DNA of 27,365 bases from a virus. Lineage: Duplodnaviria; Caudoviricetes. Below the pieces are notes generated by a model. It made no database searches. It saw only the letters and a program-made list of their open reading frames with translations, and was not told the origin of the DNA. Below, piece after piece: positions 10,966 to 20,351 of the stretch (the first letter of the stretch is position 1; each line of letters starts with the position of its first letter). The translations under genes were made by a program, and so were the position numbers. Where the stretch lies: the IMG/VR virus record IMGVR_UViG_3300042549_004128, positions 1-27,365 of that record. One strand, given 5' to 3'.

Positions 10966-11340
10966 TCGATGTCTGAAAAAATCTGCTCGACATTTTGGAG
11001 GTGATTGGGCAAAACAGTTTTCGCCATGCCAAAAACCGCATCCCAAAACGCCCCGCTGACCCCTCTGGTCATCGGCCTCACCCAAAACCCGACCCCTGTC
11101 TGTCGCTGTCAGACGCCTCAGGTCACCCACCCACCCCACAGCCCCAGCCACCAGCCCGCTGGAAATCAGACGGCGGAACCGACTCCTTCCCCTATGGGGA
11201 ATGTGAACGGTTCGCCCAGCAACGGTTCGCCGTCTGAACCTTCCCACGAGCCCACCCCCAGCCACCAGCCCGCCCAGCCCACGGAGCCTTCGGCTCAGAC
11301 GGCCCCCAATTCCACCCCCCAAAATTCCACCCAAAATCCC

Positions 11341-12531
11341 ATGCCCAACATCCCACCAGCCCAGCCCCAGCAGCCCGCCACCCCGAACCTCAAGGCTTTA
11401 GCCTTGGAAGCCTTAATCGGCCCTCGGGGAACCATCAAGCCGTCCTCTGGACGGAATGGTAACAAGAACCTCATCAAGAAGTGGCTCACCGAGAAAGGCG
11501 TAGCCTTTTCGGTGTCTGGTTGGGCCACGGTCAAGGAACTTGGTGCTGTCTATAATGACACTACTGACACCATCCTGAATCAGATGCTTCAGAAGTCTTC
11601 GACTTCTGCCCAGCCCAATCAGCAGAATCAGCAGACTCAGCAGACTCCGTCTGCCCCGACCGCCCAGCCCACGACCCCTCAGACAACTCCGTTGTCTGTT
11701 CCGACTCCCAAGACCCCGAAGACGGCGAAGCCGATGAAACATGCCCTTCACGACGAAGTCGTGGAAGTGATGTCTGTCGGTCTGAATGCCTTTGTCTTCG
11801 GCCCTGCTGGAAGTGGTAAGACCACTTTGGCTGGTTCGGTCGCTAAGTCCTTGGGACTTAGGCTGTTCATGACAGGAGCAGTCCGTAAGGACTTCAAACT
11901 GTTCGGTTTCATCGATGCCCATGGCAACTATCGGTCTACGACCTTCCGAGATGCCTTTGAAAACGGCGGTCTGTTCCTGTTCGATGAAATCGATGCCTCA
12001 GACAGCGGTGTCCTTCTCCAACTGAATGCGGCCTTGGCAAACGGAGTTTGCGACTTCCCCGATGCCACCATCAAGGCTCACCCTGATTTCAGGGTGATGG
12101 CTTCAGCCAATACCAACGGTGACGGTGCTACTGCATCTTATTCGGCAAGACAGTTGCTGGACGGTGCTTCTAAGGACCGATTCATGACCTTCACTTGTGA
12201 CTATGATAACAGTCTGGTGAAGCAAATCGTGGCGGACATGTGCAAAAATCCTACGGATTTGGCTGTCTGTCTGGATTGGAATGACGATGTCTGTCTGATT
12301 CGCAAGTTGGCTAAAGCCAACAGCATCAACCTCATCCTCAGCCCCCGAGCCACCTTCATGGGAGTGAAACTCCTGACGAATCCGAATCGCAAGGTCTTTA
12401 AGACCAAGGCCGATTTGATGGATGGCCTTGTCTGGAACAAACTGTCTGACGAAAATACCCGAAAGCGTCTCAAGGGCCTCTTTGAGGCCGAGAAAGCCAA
12501 GGCCATCGTCACCCCCGCTGTCACCGCCTAA
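11341..12531 (+). CDS. MoxR/CbbQ/CobS-like AAA+ ATPase with N-terminal extension
   Basis: Walker A GPAGSGKT, Walker B FLFDEID, 'HPDFRVMASANT', 'LDGASKDRF', 'LSPRAT'. The frame is open back to 11005/11026, but 11341 has the typical C/A-rich leader. Confidence 0.9.
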   Translation: MPNIPPAQPQQPATPNLKALALEALIGPRGTIKPSSGRNGNKNLIKKWLTEKGVAFSVSGWATVKELGAVYNDTTDTILNQMLQKSSTSAQPNQQNQQTQQTPSAPTAQPTTPQTTPLSVPTPKTPKTAKPMKHALHDEVVEVMSVGLNAFVFGPAGSGKTTLAGSVAKSLGLRLFMTGAVRKDFKLFGFIDAHGNYRSTTFRDAFENGGLFLFDEIDASDSGVLLQLNAALANGVCDFPDATIKAHPDFRVMASANTNGDGATASYSARQLLDGASKDRFMTFTCDYDNSLVKQIVADMCKNPTDLAVCLDWNDDVCLIRKLAKANSINLILSPRATFMGVKLLTNPNRKVFKTKADLMDGLVWNKLSDENTRKRLKGLFEAEKAKAIVTPAVTA

Positions 12532-12600
12532 CCCTACTGTCCAAAGGACAGCCCCTCACCCCGAGGGGTTGTCCGAAGGACAACCAACCAAAAAAAACAC

Positions 12601-13557
12601 ATGTCTAACGACCAACTCAAGGACCTCATGGTCCTTCCCAAAGAGCGACAGACGGTCAGTCTGTCTGAAGGTGTCCGTCTCACTTCGGAGTTCAAATCCA
12701 TCGGTGGATTTGTCCTGCTGGAAGCAGACAGCATCGAAAAGTATCTGGCCTTCCAGACCGTCTTCGACGGTAAGGCTACGGGCCATGAACGGCATTCCCG
12801 AACCAACTCTGCCTCCAAGTCTTGGGACTTGAATACGGGTTGGGAAGGCCACCAGAAGATTCTGGTGGAAGGCTGGAAGGCTGGTGTTGACGGTCTAAAG
12901 ACCGCCCAAGCCACCTTCCCTTCGACAGGTTCCTTCGGAAAAATCCCAGACAGCGACATTGCTGGAGGTTCGCTTTGCGTAGCAACTTACTGCTCTGGTG
13001 CTCCAGACTACTACGATGTAGACCCCGAGGAAGACAGCCTTGGTTCCACCAAGGTCATCAAGTTGGTGGTTCCTGTCGGTGCTACTGCTGGATACTCTGC
13101 AGAGTATCTGTTCAATCGTGGTGCTGGAATCGTGGCGGCAATCCAAGCAATCGAACGGTCTGGAAAGCAATGTGAGGTCTGGGCTGAATCTGCGGCCACG
13201 ACCTCTGGTCAGCCAATCTGTCAGCGTGTCTTAATCAAGTGGGCTGGTTCTCCTCTTGACCTGAATACGATGGCTGTCTGGTTGGCTCATCCTGCCACCT
13301 TCCGACGACTGTTCTTCTCTGGTCGAGAATGTCTGTGGAATTTCCAGACCCCTGTGGGGTCTGTCAGACACATCCTCGGCGGAGACTACGGTTCGACCTG
13401 TCAGGGTCCTACGGACAAGATGTCTGAAGGCACTATCTACTTGCCTCTGGCAAGAGACGGTAACTACGGCACTCCCAAGGCGGCCCTTCAGACTCTGTCT
13501 GAAATCTTCAAGTCCGCTGGGTTCTCCTTGGACTTCGGTGACCTGAGCAGCATGTAA
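12601..13557 (+). CDS. vWA/CobT-like partner of the AAA+ ATPase (degenerate MIDAS)
   Basis: 318 aa next to the AAA+ gene; 'IKLVVPVGATAGYSAE..NRGAGIVAAIQAIERSG..CEVW' and 'HPATFRRLFF' resemble phage vWA-like partners. Confidence 0.65.
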   Translation: MSNDQLKDLMVLPKERQTVSLSEGVRLTSEFKSIGGFVLLEADSIEKYLAFQTVFDGKATGHERHSRTNSASKSWDLNTGWEGHQKILVEGWKAGVDGLKTAQATFPSTGSFGKIPDSDIAGGSLCVATYCSGAPDYYDVDPEEDSLGSTKVIKLVVPVGATAGYSAEYLFNRGAGIVAAIQAIERSGKQCEVWAESAATTSGQPICQRVLIKWAGSPLDLNTMAVWLAHPATFRRLFFSGRECLWNFQTPVGSVRHILGGDYGSTCQGPTDKMSEGTIYLPLARDGNYGTPKAALQTLSEIFKSAGFSLDFGDLSSM

Positions 13558-13617
13558 GGACGAAACAGACACCCTTCGGGGTGTCTGTCTTGCGGTGAAA
13601 CCGCAACTGATGAGTCC
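13558..13617 (+). ncRNA. Hammerhead ribozyme, type II (HH1), GUC cleavage after 13589
   Basis: GGAC-GAA-ACAGACACCC-UUCG-GGGUGUCUGU-C-UUGCGG-UGAAA-CCGCAA-CUGAUGA-GUCC: all core nucleotides present with three perfect stems. Confidence 0.96.
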
Positions 13618-13637
13618 ATCAGACAACTTTTCCCACC

Positions 13638-13994
13638 ATGAAAAACCAAACCAAAATCCCCGCCAAACTCATCGCTCGTCCTAAGGACGAACTGCTTCCG
13701 CTTCGTCTGACCGACGCCCACAAGGAGGTGCTCAAAGACGGACGAAAGGTTCGACTGCTGTCTAAGTTGGTCAAGACATCCCCTCATTGGGGAACTGTCT
13801 GGGCTGAATTCGACGGCCTCCTCTGGGGCTTCGCCGTCTCCAACTACGCTCAGACAATCTCGGTCGGTGACCCCGAAGACAGCAACGAGAACCCCGAAGT
13901 CATCGATGTCGATGTCTGGTCGTTCAATACGGCCTACATGGAAGGCCGAATGGTTACTGTCTGCAAGGAACTCATCGAATACCCCTCTCTCTAA
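13638..13994 (+). CDS. Hypothetical early protein (118 aa)
   Basis: ORF with phage-typical codon usage and a C-rich leader, directly after HH1. Confidence 0.8.
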   Translation: MKNQTKIPAKLIARPKDELLPLRLTDAHKEVLKDGRKVRLLSKLVKTSPHWGTVWAEFDGLLWGFAVSNYAQTISVGDPEDSNENPEVIDVDVWSFNTAYMEGRMVTVCKELIEYPSL

Positions 13995-14001
13995 TCCCAA
14001 C

Positions 14002-14580
14002 ATGAAAATCAAAATCACCCCCCACCAAGCCGTCATGGCTGAAGTCGAAACCCTCAGACAAAACCGTCTGGCCATCCTGTCTTTGGGCGTCAAGGGGTTT
14101 ACCCCTTCCCAGATTCAGAGGATGTCTGACATGGTCGAGGAACTCGAAAAGAAAATCGCAGACTTCACCGAAGGTGCTCCGACTGACCACGGTCCTTACG
14201 CAGACAATGGCATTGGCTACAAACGGTATGTCTGCGAGACGAATCCTGCTGGATTCTGTCTGTCTGTTCAGAACCACATCGCTGAACTTGTCTACGCAAT
14301 CCGAATCAATCCGTCTCGTAAGGCCCCCATGGGATTCCATGAAGACGGAATCGATGCGAGCATGGCATGTGGCGTCTATCACCCCAGCAACTTCATCAAC
14401 TTAGACACCATCATCAAAAAGGCTGTCTGTCTGGACGAAGACATGTGGGAGCACTTCGTCGTAGCCCCCATTGAGGGCGAAGACAAGGAACTGTCTAAAG
14501 ACAGGCATAAACTCTGGTGCTTCACAGGCATCAGCCCCAAGACACGCATCTACGAGCGTGGCAATCGCAAGGGCGTCTGA
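14002..14580 (+). CDS. Hypothetical early protein (192 aa)
   Basis: Start MKIKITPHQ 7 nt after the previous stop; codon usage consistent with neighbours. Confidence 0.8.
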   Translation: MKIKITPHQAVMAEVETLRQNRLAILSLGVKGFTPSQIQRMSDMVEELEKKIADFTEGAPTDHGPYADNGIGYKRYVCETNPAGFCLSVQNHIAELVYAIRINPSRKAPMGFHEDGIDASMACGVYHPSNFINLDTIIKKAVCLDEDMWEHFVVAPIEGEDKELSKDRHKLWCFTGISPKTRIYERGNRKGV

Positions 14581-14640
14581 CCACCCACGCAACCCCAGCC
14601 ACCTGCCCATACATAACCTAGGCACAATACGCATGAGAAA

Positions 14641-14679
14641 GAAAGGTGCTTGACAATCGACAAATTGTAGGCATCTTTC
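14641..14679 (+). promoter_or_regulatory. Sigma70-like promoter within a hairpin (copy 1)
   Basis: TGCTTGACA-N7-AATTGTAGGCATCTT; perfect -35; core shared with 17418-17448. Confidence 0.7.
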
Positions 14680-14715
14680 CAATCGAGCATCACCTCCCAA
14701 CCCACAAAAAAACCA

Positions 14716-15156
14716 ATGAAATCCGCACCGCAATACGGCATCGTCATCCAGAATCTCATCGCTCTGGACGAACTGCACAACGAGGTCACGAACCGCCTGT
14801 CCCACATCGAGGCCAGCGTGGAAACCTACCTCGAAAATCCCAAGCACATCAAGAAGCCCGACACGCTGGGCAAGTGGAGCAAGCGTAATGCTGGCCCCCT
14901 TGCAGACATCGAACGAGCCCTTGACGACATCGGACAGGCCGAAGGCCACCTGACGACTCTGTCTGCCAACCTTGACCGCTGGCTAGACACGAAGTCTCCT
15001 GTGGACGGCGTGCCCAGCGAAGACATCAAGTTCGTGGACTATGTCCACATCATGGCTCGTCTGGAGGAAGCCCGTCTGAATCTCCAGAATGCGGAATGGC
15101 TCGTCAGCCAGCCCGAGTTCGTGACCTTCATCACCCACATCGAAGACAGCATCTAA
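14716..15156 (+). CDS. Hypothetical early protein (146 aa, helical)
   Basis: ORF after the promoter and a C/A-rich leader. Confidence 0.8.
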   Translation: MKSAPQYGIVIQNLIALDELHNEVTNRLSHIEASVETYLENPKHIKKPDTLGKWSKRNAGPLADIERALDDIGQAEGHLTTLSANLDRWLDTKSPVDGVPSEDIKFVDYVHIMARLEEARLNLQNAEWLVSQPEFVTFITHIEDSI

Positions 15157-15265
15157 TCCCTTTGCCTTGTCTGTCTGAGGTTCATGTTCCCGAACATACC
15201 TCATTGAACAGGCGAACCCAGACAGACAGGCATCCACTCTCACCCACCCAGACACCCCCACATAT

Positions 15266-15466
15266 ATGCCCACCATCAAGCCCACCATCCACAACCCAGA
15301 CGGCAATATTTTTGCCATCATCGGCATGGCCCAAGCGGCCCTCCGAAATCGTCCGACCTCGCTCGACCTTTTCAAGGCGAAGGTCAAGACAGCGATGTCT
15401 GACGGAACCGACTATGACGGCATGCTCGTCATCATCCAAGAATTCGTGAACATCGAAATCGACTAA
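15266..15466 (+). CDS. Small conserved phage/plasmid hypothetical protein (66 aa)
   Basis: 'DGNIFAIIG...AL...DYDGML' pattern recalled from small phage proteins; not checked against a database. Confidence 0.8.
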   Translation: MPTIKPTIHNPDGNIFAIIGMAQAALRNRPTSLDLFKAKVKTAMSDGTDYDGMLVIIQEFVNIEID

Positions 15467-15504
15467 CTTTTCACCCACCCAGACAAACCCAAAATAATAC
15501 CAAC

Positions 15505-15870
15505 ATGCCCAAAGCCCAAAAGCCCAAGTCCACCCCCGCCTTCCTCGTGGAGGTCGTGACCACCACGGTCGGGAAGAATCTCAAGGTCACCCCTGTGACC
15601 GTGGGAGACTTCACCGACATCCACAAGCACCTCGGCATCGAAGGCGGGACCTTCACCTTGGTCCGTCTGAACACCTACGGAGATGTCATGTATGTCGATG
15701 ACGAAGGTGCTCTCAAAGAGAACACCCTGATGTATCTGAACGGCAACTATCCCATCTACGGCAAGGGCCTTGTCTTGGGCTCGACCGCAGACGGAGATGA
15801 CAAAGCCCCGCACATGAACATGCAGGAAGTCGCAGACATGTGCCACCACTTTGAGGCCCGCCCCTACTAA
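15505..15870 (+). CDS. DUF3846-like protein
   Basis: 'DVMYVDDEGAL...PIYGKGLVLG' motif. Confidence 0.7.
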   Translation: MPKAQKPKSTPAFLVEVVTTTVGKNLKVTPVTVGDFTDIHKHLGIEGGTFTLVRLNTYGDVMYVDDEGALKENTLMYLNGNYPIYGKGLVLGSTADGDDKAPHMNMQEVADMCHHFEARPY

Positions 15871-15907
15871 CCTTCACCCACCCAGACACAACCAACCAGA
15901 CACAACC

Positions 15908-16324
15908 ATGAGCGAACCCATCCAGACCAACCACACCCAGCCCGACCTGTTCACCAGACAGGCCGAGGCTGTCCACGAGTTCAAGGCGAAAGCCTTGTCT
16001 GTCATGCGAGACGATGTCGCAGACAGGAAGCACCTCATCGATTCCTGCGTCAACTACATGCTCGCCATGCAGAGGGACATGAACCGAGTCCACGACAACC
16101 TCGCCATCGTCAGACAGCAACTCGAAAGCCGTGACTACGAGCGAGTGCTCAAGAACATGGAAGACGCTGGCTGGGTCATGTCTGTCATGAGGGGTCGAAT
16201 GAACCGTCTGTCCAAGGACTTGGTTCAACCCCTTTACAGCGAACGCCTCGCAGACAAGGTCGCCTCGCTCACCGAAGACAGGCCCATCCGAACCGTCACC
16301 CCAGACACCTCTGTCCAGAAATAA
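15908..16324 (+). CDS. Hypothetical early protein (138 aa, coiled-coil)
   Basis: Start MSEPIQ after the repeat leader. Confidence 0.8.
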   Translation: MSEPIQTNHTQPDLFTRQAEAVHEFKAKALSVMRDDVADRKHLIDSCVNYMLAMQRDMNRVHDNLAIVRQQLESRDYERVLKNMEDAGWVMSVMRGRMNRLSKDLVQPLYSERLADKVASLTEDRPIRTVTPDTSVQK

Positions 16325-16349
16325 CTCTCACCCCCAACCCAGACACACC

Positions 16350-16592
16350 ATGAGCCAACAGACAGACATGAACGGCATTCCCCTCCCTCCGCCCCCTGCC
16401 CCCTCGCAAGAGTGGGTAGACAAGAAGGCCACCGACTTCCTCGCTTGGGGTCGTGGCTCTTGGGGCCAAGGCCCCTATGACCAAGCCCGTTATGACAACG
16501 GGACGATGCTCCGCATCTGGACCGCCATCGCAGACAAGGCCAAGGCCCACGCCGAGTTCCTGTCTGACAAGACGCCCCACGAAACCAACTAA
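16350..16592 (+). CDS. Hypothetical early protein (80 aa)
   Basis: Bounded by repeat leaders on both sides. Confidence 0.75.
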   Translation: MSQQTDMNGIPLPPPPAPSQEWVDKKATDFLAWGRGSWGQGPYDQARYDNGTMLRIWTAIADKAKAHAEFLSDKTPHETN

Positions 16593-16619
16593 CCCTCACC
16601 CCCAAAATAAAATACGAAC

Positions 16620-17003
16620 ATGACCAAGTCCCCCGAAGCCATCACGAACGAAATCATCGCCATCCACGAAACTGTCTGCGACCTCAAGCGGAAGGCCCAG
16701 ATGCTCGCCACCTCCGACAAGCCCGAAGACAGGACGACCTACTTGGCCCTCAAGGCCGAGTGGGGTGTCTTGGAGAACAAGGTCGTGGACCTCGTCATCG
16801 AGCGTCGCCACGCCTTCCGTCTGGAGGCCATGCAGGAGAAGGCAGACATCAAGCACGACCTCGATGAGGAGATGGAGCCCATGACCCATGACGAGGAGAT
16901 GGACCTCTATGACAGCATCGAGTCTGCGAATCCGTCTGGCCGTGATTTGCCAGACAGGAACGAAGACGGCGAATACCTCAACGGCGGAGGCTACATGCCG
17001 TAA
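16620..17003 (+). CDS. Hypothetical early protein with acidic C-terminus (127 aa)
   Basis: Bounded by repeat leaders; D/E-rich tail. Confidence 0.8.
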   Translation: MTKSPEAITNEIIAIHETVCDLKRKAQMLATSDKPEDRTTYLALKAEWGVLENKVVDLVIERRHAFRLEAMQEKADIKHDLDEEMEPMTHDEEMDLYDSIESANPSGRDLPDRNEDGEYLNGGGYMP

Positions 17004-17039
17004 GACAGACAACTCTCACCCACCCAGAAAAACATACCT

Positions 17040-17399
17040 ATGCCCACCCCCGAAAAAGAAATGTTCCTCATCGGAACCATCATGTCTGTCTGCATGGCAG
17101 ACTTCAAAGCCAAGAACGAGGTCCCCAAGTTGGAAGACAGGCTTCCGCTGGGCGACCTCGCCATCACCGCTAGGGCCCATGAAGCCCTTGGCGACAAGGT
17201 CTGTCTGCATCTGGGCTTCGCTCAGAATGCGACCGTCTGGGGGAACACCCTCGGAGACGAAGACAGACAGACGAACGACATGGCCATGAAGAATGGCGGT
17301 CGCATCCTGTCTGCTTGGACCCTTGACGGAGAAGGTTACTATGTCATCACGGAGCACGACCGTTCCGTCACGACCATCATGCGAAAGGAAGACTACTAA
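17040..17399 (+). CDS. Conserved plasmid/phage small protein ('LG....T...WG....D...N......G.RILSA......ITE.DRS.TT....EDY' family)
   Basis: Recognisable motif pattern; function unknown. Confidence 0.8.
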   Translation: MPTPEKEMFLIGTIMSVCMADFKAKNEVPKLEDRLPLGDLAITARAHEALGDKVCLHLGFAQNATVWGNTLGDEDRQTNDMAMKNGGRILSAWTLDGEGYYVITEHDRSVTTIMRKEDY

Positions 17400-17406
17400 A
17401 AACAAA

Positions 17407-17455
17407 ATCGGGCAACATGCTTGACAGCCTAATAATTGTAGGCATGTTGCTCGAT
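17407..17455 (+). promoter_or_regulatory. Sigma70-like promoter within a hairpin (copy 2)
   Basis: TGCTTGACA-N7-AATTGTAGGCATGTT inside the inverted repeat ATCGGGCAACATGC/GCATGTTGCTCGAT. Confidence 0.7.
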
Positions 17456-17470
17456 ACCACTTTCCCCCCA

Positions 17471-17857
17471 ATGAGCAAAAACCCAGCACAGCGGCCCACG
17501 GCCCTCACTAAAGCGTTCCGTCATCTCCTGCACGACTACATGGTCGAGCGTGATGAAGGCAGGACGCCCTACACCTCCAAGGCGAGCGATGCCTACAAGG
17601 AGGCCCACCGTAAGTTTCAGGAGATGGCTCTGGAGGCCGACCAAGGTGTCGCCTCCGCTGTCGTCGCCTCCGTCTGTCGGACGGTCTATGACGAAATCAA
17701 GGACAAGAAGGGAGACGGCATCGAGGCCATCCAGCGATGGGACTTCGGCATCCTCCGTTCCCTGTCTGTCTTCTACTCGTCCATGAGGATGTCTGGCGAA
17801 GACAACTTCCTGTCTGAGAAACCCCTTCCCCCCAACAACAACCAAGATACCAAATAA
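17471..17857 (+). CDS. Hypothetical protein (128 aa)
   Basis: Start MSKNPAQ downstream of promoter copy 2. Confidence 0.78.
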   Translation: MSKNPAQRPTALTKAFRHLLHDYMVERDEGRTPYTSKASDAYKEAHRKFQEMALEADQGVASAVVASVCRTVYDEIKDKKGDGIEAIQRWDFGILRSLSVFYSSMRMSGEDNFLSEKPLPPNNNQDTK

Positions 17858-17864
17858 TACGAAC

Positions 17865-18356
17865 ATGACGAACAACCAGAACCAGAACGGTGGCTTCGAC
17901 CCGAACGGTCACCACATCGCCATGGAGGCTCAGGAATTCCTGAACTTCCTCGGACACATCACCCAAGCGACCGTCATTGCGGCGGTCACCGCTGGGTCCA
18001 TGTCTGAGGACATCAAGAAGATTGAGGACCTCCTGCAGGACGGCAAGGTGGACGAGGCCCTGAAGGAACTGCAGTTGATGAAGCGTGGCATGGTCCTCAT
18101 CAGCAAGACTGTCTGCAAGGTCGGTTCCGAACTGACCCTGCACGACCAGAAAATCTGCGAGGGCTGTGAGGCCAAGGGCATGTCCGTGGAGTCGGTGACG
18201 GCCACGCACATCGAACGGTTCCAGCAAGACACGAAGGGCTTCATCGATGAGTTCTTCTCTGCGACCCCGCACACCAAGATTGTCAAGCCGCCCGAAGGCA
18301 AGAAGAAGAAGGACGATGACATCGACCCCTTCAGTTCGGGCTCTCGGTTCAACTAA
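17865..18356 (+). CDS. Hypothetical protein (163 aa)
   Basis: Leader AAATAATACGAACATG similar to that of the 16620 gene; consistent codon usage. Confidence 0.8.
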   Translation: MTNNQNQNGGFDPNGHHIAMEAQEFLNFLGHITQATVIAAVTAGSMSEDIKKIEDLLQDGKVDEALKELQLMKRGMVLISKTVCKVGSELTLHDQKICEGCEAKGMSVESVTATHIERFQQDTKGFIDEFFSATPHTKIVKPPEGKKKKDDDIDPFSSGSRFN

Positions 18357-18366
18357 GAACCAGACA

Positions 18367-18438
18367 GGACGAAACAGGCAGACGCAACAGGCATGGTGCG
18401 TCTGTCTGTATCTGGGTGAGGCCCAGACTGACGAGTCC
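18367..18438 (+). ncRNA. Hammerhead ribozyme, type II (HH2), GUA cleavage after 18410
   Basis: GGAC-GAA-ACAGGCAGACGCA-(10 nt)-UGCGUCUGUCUGU-A-UCUGGG-UGAGG-CCCAGA-CUGACGA-GUCC: intact core, one G-U pair in stem III. Confidence 0.95.
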
Positions 18439-18489
18439 CTCGCAGAGACAACTTTCACCCCCAACCAAAAACCAAACAACCAGACAGAC

Positions 18490-18705
18490 ATGAAGCACAA
18501 CAACCGAAACCGTAAAGGCAACAAGCGGGCCGTCATCCTCGTCACGCAGATAGACATGCTCCCTCTCCATGAGGACGGCATGTGGGTCGTGCGGGAGGAG
18601 GTCTACGACAATCAGACAGGCAAGGCCGAGCAGACGGTCGAGCACAAGTTCGTCCACAAGGCGGACGCCCAGAAGTTCATCGACTCGTGGGTCGGCCAAC
18701 TCTAA
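18490..18705 (+). CDS. Hypothetical protein (71 aa)
   Basis: Start MKHNNRN after HH2 and the repeat leader. Confidence 0.75.
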   Translation: MKHNNRNRKGNKRAVILVTQIDMLPLHEDGMWVVREEVYDNQTGKAEQTVEHKFVHKADAQKFIDSWVGQL

Positions 18706-18712
18706 GACAGAC

Positions 18713-19201
18713 ATGGCCATGGAATACAGAGAGCACCTGTTCACAGACAGGCTCAACACGGACGCCATCGTGTCCTTCCACCTGAAGGTCGTGCCCAAGC
18801 CAGACAACAACTTCGGCACAGCGACCTATATCCTGCTTGGTGATGACGGCGAAGACAGGACCTTCATCGACCACTTTGAAGACACAGTCTCCAGACCGAG
18901 CAATGTCTGGTTTGAGCCCATGACGATGGGCGTGGAGGTGAACTCCGTCCGCATCGCCAAGAACTTCCTGTCAGACAGGTTCGGCCACGGGACCGATGAC
19001 TATGCCTGTGGTCCGTGCTATCTGGCAGGACAGGCGTGGGTGTCGTTCCGAGACAGACACGGTCGCCGTCTGGGGCTGTCCTTTGACGAGGTGTCCAAGG
19101 TGGTGGCAGACACGATTCGCTGGCGGTTCCCGCTGGACGAGATGGTCCTGCATTCTGCGGCCATCAGTCGCAACGCATCCCGCATCCACCCCACGCCGTG
19201 A
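18713..19201 (+). CDS. Hypothetical protein (162 aa)
   Basis: Start MAMEYRE 7 nt after the previous stop; last gene of the plus-strand block. Confidence 0.72.
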   Translation: MAMEYREHLFTDRLNTDAIVSFHLKVVPKPDNNFGTATYILLGDDGEDRTFIDHFEDTVSRPSNVWFEPMTMGVEVNSVRIAKNFLSDRFGHGTDDYACGPCYLAGQAWVSFRDRHGRRLGLSFDEVSKVVADTIRWRFPLDEMVLHSAAISRNASRIHPTP

Positions 19202-19202
19202 A

Positions 19203-19219
19203 GCCCCCGCTTTGGGGGT
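19203..19219. terminator. Possible hairpin at the convergence of the early and replication blocks
   Basis: GCCCCC-GCTTT-GGGGGT right after the stop; no clear U-tract. Confidence 0.3.
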
Positions 19220-20314: not shown

Positions 20315-20351
20315 TAAATTACTAATGTCTCACCGAGACATTAGTAATTTA
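20315..20351. repeat. Perfect 17-bp inverted repeat with a 3-nt loop
   Basis: TAAATTACTAATGTCTC-ACC-GAGACATTAGTAATTTA. Confidence 0.95.

Follow-up and report, generated by a model that had tools for sequence, protein, structure and literature searches.

A type II hammerhead motif between small genes of a tailed phage, with a probable U-A docking contact and a tail complementary to its core

Introduction

What would a self-cleaving hammerhead do in the gap between two small genes of a tailed DNA phage, and which contacts would govern its activity? Hammerheads between phage genes have already been described. Perreault et al. (2011) reported type II hammerheads in bacteria and prophages, with clusters flanking prophage genes; 14 of 18 consensus hammerheads cleaved in vitro, tandem prophage hammerheads cleaved long transcripts, and clusters cleave both in vitro and in vivo (PMC3088659). 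Additionally, three type II hammerheads located near phage-like genes cleave in vivo in Desulfovibrio (PMC8782182), although the role of hammerheads in bacteria has been described as largely unknown (PMC6765202). Here we consider one such motif, HH2, together with its companion HH1, its orthologues and a family of related elements. The window, that is, the whole stretch of DNA analysed, is the whole of one assembly, a single contig of 27,365 nt from a tailed dsDNA phage, whose genes include those for a major head protein, a portal, a large terminase, a tail fibre, a primase/helicase, RusA and a Cas4-like exonuclease.

Anatomy and detection of HH2

HH2 is a real and intact type II hammerhead motif (Table 1). 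Loops close stems I and III while stem II is open, as expected for the type II topology. From 18367 to 18438, all the core positions considered under the criteria of PMC3088659 are present with no substitution (C3, U4, G5, A6, N7, G8 and A9, G12 to A15, U16 and H17), together with the pairs that flank the core, U18411-A18427, C18370-G18435 and A18374-U18409. The last of these closes stem III and is followed by 12 further contiguous pairs, one of them G.U, and stem I comprises six pairs and a possible U.G. A GUA site, as in HH2, is found in 17 of the 155 members with enough flank of the family described below. HH2 is probably active as a ribozyme. Its boundaries should be set one base earlier, at A18366, and its tail reaches 18445.

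A descriptor search for all three hammerhead topologies, on both strands of the window and with at least 12 stem pairs, gave two matches, HH2 with 23 stem pairs and HH1 with 20, while the best total in 100 dinucleotide shuffles of the window was 17, reached once. In the 76-nt HH2 stretch, the hammerhead is the minimum-energy structure (z -4.3), and none of 200 shuffles was as stable. An earlier note, made from the letters alone, had claimed a second type II hammerhead here, with a GGAC/GUCC stem II common to HH1 and HH2, the core CUGACGA and the site GUA; these letters are as it stated, and the full anatomy, the pair count and the score of a covariance model bear the claim out. The covariance search that it had called for was divided in its outcome. 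Rfam reports no HH2 match across the window, nor in a scan of 151 nt that allowed E values as high as 10: HH2 stays below the 37-bit cut-off of Hammerhead_II (RF02276), as does HH1 with 29.9 bits. By contrast, a model built from 14 members of other genomes, whose calibration is rough, gave 54.4 bits (E 5e-14) to HH2 and 62.4 bits to HH1, the next non-hammerhead match in the window reaching only 10.7 bits. Covariation within that model is partly produced by selection, because its members were picked for the stem test and for length.

Three sequencing runs contained 5-8% of the sampled words, all of them in short assembled contigs. One RNA contig stops at 18370, which is 40 nt short of the predicted cut, and a contig of a relative, probably DNA, extends to 18432; neither of these ends bears on cleavage.

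Table 1. Features of HH2 and its surroundings (positions in the window)
Feature	Position	Strand	Remarks
A 5'-adjacent to stem II	18366	+	putative docking partner of U18417
Stem II, 5' strand GGAC	18367-18370	+	descriptor match and fold
Core GAAA (G12, A13, A14, A15.1)	18371-18374	+	
Stem III hairpin	18374-18409	+	13 contiguous pairs including A15.1-U16.1, and a weak apical extension
Triplet GUA	18408-18410	+	predicted cleavage bond 18410/18411
Stem I and loop	18411-18427	+	18411-18416 with 18422-18427; loop UGAGG 18417-18421
Catalytic core CUGACGA (N7 = C)	18428-18434	+	invariant in 4/4 orthologues
Stem II, 3' strand GUCC	18435-18438	+	
Tail CUCGCAG	18439-18445	+	complementary to core; predicted to displace stem II
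Leader, unstructured, A/C-rich	18446-18489	+	resembles leaders of other block genes
Companion hammerhead HH1	13557-13623	+	stem II as in HH2, A at -1, loop UGAAA, tail AUCAG perfectly complementary to the core
Upstream gene, 163 aa	17865-18356	+	no known family, only a sub-threshold Pfam match
Downstream gene, 71 aa	18490-18705	+	no known family; first of the genes carried by the predicted 3' fragment
Last block gene, 162 aa	18713-19201	+	no known family; terminator-like hairpin 19203-19219 after it

Gene block around HH2

HH2 lies on the sense strand of an intergenic gap, in a block of small + strand genes. The stop of the 163-aa gene is 10 nt upstream of it, and the 71-aa gene starts 51 nt downstream. 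The upstream gene has nine homologues at 62-99% identity. The proteins flanking HH2 have no family or name that hints at their function. From 18199 to 18705, a frame without stops crosses HH2 and enters the downstream gene in the window and in one relative (L001), and partly in a second (L367). Coding was rejected as an explanation for the conservation of HH2; the frame is closed in a third relative (L368).

Large structures are found in six of the 14 gaps of the block, namely the two hammerheads and four long hairpins. Both hammerheads, HH1 and HH2, occupy gaps of this single + strand block, which matches the clustered pattern described for prophages (Fig. 3 of PMC3088659). No promoter was identified in a scan of the block. 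In particular, TTGACA sites near 14650 and 17422 fail the scan and sit in long hairpins. The early transcript of phage T7 is processed by RNase III between genes and, by analogy, the block looks punctuated by two kinds of processing signals.

Some other features of this genome deserve mention in their own right. The long intergenic hairpins at 14636-14681 and 17410-17456 (+) have UGCUUGACA...AAUUGUAGGCA in common, with G.U pairs, and the L367 orthologue of the latter has matched changes on both arms; they are candidate RNase III-like sites, or candidate promoters inside inverted repeats. Another long intergenic hairpin, at 15163-15232 (+), has internal loops (z -6.2) and occupies a slot of the same kind as the hammerheads; it has no Rfam match and, among the loci compared, only the near relative has a counterpart. 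A further one, at 12538-12583 (+; z -7.4), lies between an AAA ATPase gene and a DUF7192 gene, and its outer part is altered in the relative. Throughout the block (11005-19201, +), leaders are unstructured and A/C-rich, many of them with the word CUYUCACCC, and there is no evident Shine-Dalgarno sequence, a possible clue to the host. Outside the block, a near-perfect 37-nt inverted repeat at 20315-20351, located right after a TTGACA and unchanged in the relative, is a possible origin or operator; its surroundings are low in coding and carry repeated GAGGAC/GTCCTC words. Finally, the hexamer CAGACA/TGTCTG occurs 194 times against 33 expected under a second-order model, a six-fold excess that is seen on both strands (93 and 101), in genes and gaps alike, and that is dense in L001 too; it could be a protein-binding or modification site.

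Conservation in relatives

HH2 is found at the same place in three relatives, L001 (in a region about 97% identical), L367 (83%) and L368 (86%), one of which came from protein-based scans of viral contigs and two from a pattern scan of metagenomes. All four copies have the same core, the same stem II and the same six pairs in stem I (10 of 10 pairs of stems I and II), and the A before stem II is present in each of them. Stem III differs by three one-sided changes and one broken apical pair, changes that are structure-neutral. Loop I is more variable, being UGAGG in the window only and UAAUG, UAACG and UAAGG in the orthologues. The tail reads CUCGCAG in the window and in L001 and AAAAUCGCAG in L367, where an insertion pushes it 3 nt away with its pairing to the core still kept, and it is deleted in L368; a core-complementary tail is thus retained in three of the four copies.

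The earlier note had also maintained that HH2 is not a recent copy of HH1, and that the two had diverged through compensatory changes. The first part agrees with our results, since the similarity of their stems is within the range of unrelated family pairs. The second is not shown by the sequences: the stems of HH1 and HH2 cannot be aligned base by base, and no pair has changes on both sides among the four HH2 copies.

A family with the same stem II

Related elements were collected with a pattern that required the GGAC/GUCC stem II, and all the counts given here apply to that stem II sequence. From 18 of the viral collection's 64 parts, the scan gave 145 stretches, which puts the viral total at an estimated 460 or so, and cellular genomes gave 89. 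Some viral contigs carry five matches. The viral set consisted of 154 sequences with 185 matches, which yielded 157 distinct members passing the stem test (duplicates and failures account for the drop, and three of the 157 come from this phage and its relative), 155 of them with enough flank and grouped in 118 clusters. The cellular set had 94 matches and yielded 73 distinct passing members, 72 with flank, in 46 clusters. The flanking frames indicate that, like HH2, family members lie between genes and on the sense strand: among the 76 with long flanks, a stop is found within 25 nt upstream in 63, against 12 on the opposite strand, and an ATG frame starts within 40 nt downstream in 61, against 13.

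A probable docking contact

A reverse-Hoogsteen pair is known from viroid and satellite hammerheads, where it links the U at the 5' end of loop 1 to the A at the 3' end of loop 2 (Dufour et al., PMC2632901). Because stem II is open in type II hammerheads, the position equivalent to this A is the base just before GGAC. HH2 carries both docking positions defined in that work, U18417 and A18366, and the family data concern the same two bases, neither of which was part of the search pattern. An A stands just 5' of GGAC in 151 of 161 non-redundant members. In about half of the members (78 of 161), this A is inside a stop triplet, and it is also kept in 73 of the 83 in which no stop triplet covers the position. 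Moreover, the A and the first U of loop I are present together in 150 of the 161 clusters, both are lacking in 10, and only one cluster has one without the other. Loops of the commonest length (n = 77) read U-N-A-N-G (U in 75, A in 63 and G in 54), which is the form of the HH2 loop.

From these patterns we infer that U18417 docks with A18366 and, more generally, type II ribozymes of the HH2 kind appear to dock through a single U-A contact in which the A comes from the 5' flank. As docking would consist of only this contact, a consensus based on a pseudoknot fits these ribozymes poorly. The ten clusters that lack both bases (L055, L060, L062, L278, L279, L282, L284, L286, L325 and L340), mostly with a shorter stem I and a longer, A-rich loop, may represent few lineages and may use another docking contact. 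In PMC3088659, the legend of Figure 2 speaks of a trans Hoogsteen/sugar-edge contact; Figure S5 and Dataset S1 of that paper may already display the U-A pair, or else the tail described below.

A tail complementary to the core

When HH2 is folded with its flanks, the lowest-energy structure pairs the tail with the core (18428-18435, with A18431 bulged) and has no stem II; HH1 behaves likewise with its AUCAG. The predicted strength of the core-tail pairing is -6.4 kcal/mol in HH2 and -6.8 kcal/mol in HH1, and the predicted probability of stem II in HH2 falls from 0.86 with four tail bases to 0.013 with eight. According to nearest-neighbour energies, which ignore the tertiary energy of the docked ribozyme, the tail fold is favoured over the active secondary structure by about 2.7 kcal/mol in HH2, by 1.2 kcal/mol in L367 and by zero in L368.

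Tails of this type recur in the family. Of the 118 viral clusters, 24 have UCAG within the first 10 nt of the tail, as do 9 of the 46 cellular ones, whereas control windows give counts of 0-3; in other words, about a fifth of the members carry a core-complementary tail and about four in five have no UCAG tail. Additionally, a stem II probability below 0.2 is predicted for 63 of 158 members with their own tail, compared with 26-39 with shuffled tails and 26-43 with distal sequence. For instance, the hammerhead L007:1361-1434 (-), in a viral contig of lower G+C, has a tail that starts as in HH1 (AUCAGACA).

A second viral scan required UCAG and left N7 and the base opposite it free. It gave 125 stretches from 59 of 64 parts, and the 124 loci analysed had 131 matches, 94 of them distinct and passing, in 64 clusters. 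In these, N7 and the base 5' of UCAG were U:A in 39 clusters, C:G in 17, U:G in three, C:A in one and another combination in three, one cluster being unscored. In the pooled 80 clusters, the counts were 46 U:A, 26 C:G, three U:G, one C:A and four others, so that the pair is Watson-Crick in 72 of 80, with offsets of 1 to 5 nt. Clustering lowers shared ancestry but does not remove it; under stricter clustering (n = 22), there were 13 U:A, six C:G, no U:G, no C:A and three others. Base composition adds a little to this signal, since members without UCAG also show a weak association of N7 with the flank (p 0.014).

The HH2 tail itself is a bulged form, not the covarying NUCAG form, and its exact form is without family support, because other tail words are not clearly enriched among the 158 members (GACU 10 against 2-5, CUCG 3 against 1-5). 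Its CAG could derive from the over-represented CAGACA hexamer. We also considered two other origins for such tails. Pairing of the tail with the 5' flank (YUGA is found upstream of 10 of 32 members with UCAG and 20 of 126 without, p 0.07) was rejected as the main cause because it leaves the covariation with N7 unexplained, while the varied spacing and the excess of U:G over C:A (3 against 1) weigh slightly against a DNA-level origin by template switching. In the literature searched, which leaves most subscription papers outside its reach, we found no description of a core-complementary hammerhead tail, and the accessible part of PMC3088659 does not mention one.

Proposed mechanism and alternatives

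Taken as a model, and with moderate confidence, we propose that HH2, an intact type II motif, probably cleaves the early transcript at 18410/18411 as it is being made and probably docks through U18417 and A18366 and not through a pseudoknot, with a tail predicted to refold onto the core. The + strand block would be transcribed through the gap that holds HH2, and the ribozyme would fold as GUCC leaves the polymerase. The reverse-Hoogsteen pair between the U of loop I and the A before stem II would then allow fast cleavage, as in viroid and satellite hammerheads. Once eight tail bases had been made, CUCGCAG could pair with the core and, because the core-tail fold is predicted to be more stable than the active secondary structure, cleavage would be confined to a short interval. 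The tail would shut uncut molecules soon after synthesis and would lock the 3' product, and the cut products, joined only by the four stem II pairs, could not re-join. Natural hammerheads have been argued to be tuned for co-transcriptional cutting and to be trappable by pairing to CUGAU (PMC1636495).

Cleavage would leave the downstream message with a 5'-OH at its start, followed by two hairpins and then an open leader, and this new 5' end may set its stability and translation apart from those of the upstream genes. The two-hairpin and open-leader picture is the one predicted for the 3' fragment of HH1. It is less secure for HH2, because a weaker alternative fold is predicted instead for its 85-nt 3' fragment (z -1.9). 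A broader proposal, which we put forward tentatively and would rather doubt than assert, is that in a sizeable group of phage type II hammerheads, to which both of those in this window belong, the covarying antisense tail acts as a timer or one-way lock, either restricting cleavage to a brief co-transcriptional period or preventing re-ligation later, and so tunes the fraction of early message cut at each gene boundary. If this were true, a few changes in tail bases would let the phage adjust cutting boundary by boundary.

The most serious alternative, which we still hold to be unlikely, is that HH2 is a plain constitutive processing ribozyme in which the pairing of tail and core is incidental. 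It draws on the loss of the tail in L368 and its spacing in L367, on the bulged form of the HH2 tail, on the abundance of CAGACA in this genome and on the absence of UCAG from most family members. However, the tails of HH1 and HH2 are of similar predicted strength with different letters, each matching its own core, the pairing is retained in L367 despite the insertion, and core and tail covary strongly in the family.

It is improbable that, at the other extreme, the ribozyme is mostly off in the cell, because the core-tail hairpin wins, and that the element serves mainly as a hairpin barrier or depends on a ribosome or protein for its activation. The stem II probability predicted in full context is only 0.01-0.05, the stop of the upstream gene is close to stem II, and inhibitory helices placed downstream have been reported to prevent assembly of a ribozyme in vivo just as those placed upstream do, below a threshold of stability (PMC2817708). 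Nevertheless, a core that never cuts would not be expected to be invariant in four of four orthologues, one of them tailless.

Highly improbable, in our assessment, is the activating pseudoknot proposed in the earlier note, in which UGAG of loop I pairs with CUCG of the tail. The four pairs (three Watson-Crick and one U.G) can indeed be drawn in the window's copy, and other type II hammerheads are activated by such pseudoknots, the published consensus including one between loop I and the 3' tail (PMC3088659). Nonetheless, both orthologues with a tail have two of the four pairs broken, and the third orthologue has no tail, so that the pairing is conserved in none of the three. In the family, at least four pairs between loop I and tail (including G.U) occur at chance level: permutation predicts 21.8 of 118 viral clusters and 8.0 of 46 cellular ones, and 18 and 8 were observed. 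Furthermore, UGAGG simply matches the family loop consensus, the pairing of four or more pairs that is conserved in the Fig. 2A consensus of PMC3088659 can be drawn in this copy of HH2 alone, and the same work reports that a pseudoknot shortened from six pairs to four lowered the rate about 20-fold. The complementarity on paper thus stands, and the pseudoknot is unsupported.

Lastly, cutting of HH1 and HH2 followed by cross-ligation through their identical stem II, the sole helix joining the two products, into a 4,821-nt circular or spliced RNA is barely conceivable. The idea was raised in PMC3088659, but such products went undetected there. The search pattern required GGAC/GUCC, so every family member shares it, and in the 3' fragment of HH1 the hairpin formed by the tail would mask GUCC. 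The contigs examined, which have little power in this respect, hold no joints.

Comparison with known systems

By itself, this copy of HH2 adds little to what has been described. The family analysis adds two points, the U-A docking and the covarying tail, and the latter points to natural control of ribozyme output. In addition, the four natural HH2 variants, with the tail adjacent, spaced or deleted, form a ready-made test series.

HH2 resembles the type II hammerheads of Perreault et al. (RF02276) in its topology, its full core, its position between small genes, the presence of several copies per phage and the proposed cutting of polycistronic RNA, but differs from them in the loop I/3' tail pseudoknot, which is conserved there (PMC3088659). 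The type II hammerheads of Desulfovibrio vulgaris are also near hypothetical and phage-like genes, two of them close together, a likeness by description; in vivo cleavage has been shown for them, whereas the cut site of HH2 is predicted (PMC8782182). The 6-pair helix I and 4-pair helix II of HH2 are as in sTRSV(+) (Table 1 of PMC1636495), and a conserved U that opens loop 1 and an A immediately 5' of the GGAC strand are common to HH2 and the hammerheads of viroids and satellites (PMC2632901). Unlike the latter, HH2 has no loop 2, the A being supplied by the 5' flank, the loop I of its family is U-N-A-N-G and not the UNmYN motif, and it is located in the message of a DNA phage and not in a rolling-circle RNA.

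In the RNase III sites of T7, cutting also takes place between genes of an early operon, although T7 uses a host enzyme. RiboJ is an engineered, artificial insulator whose added hairpin does not pair with the core; as predicted for HH2, it gives the message a defined 5' end, where a hairpin precedes a translation start that is left open.
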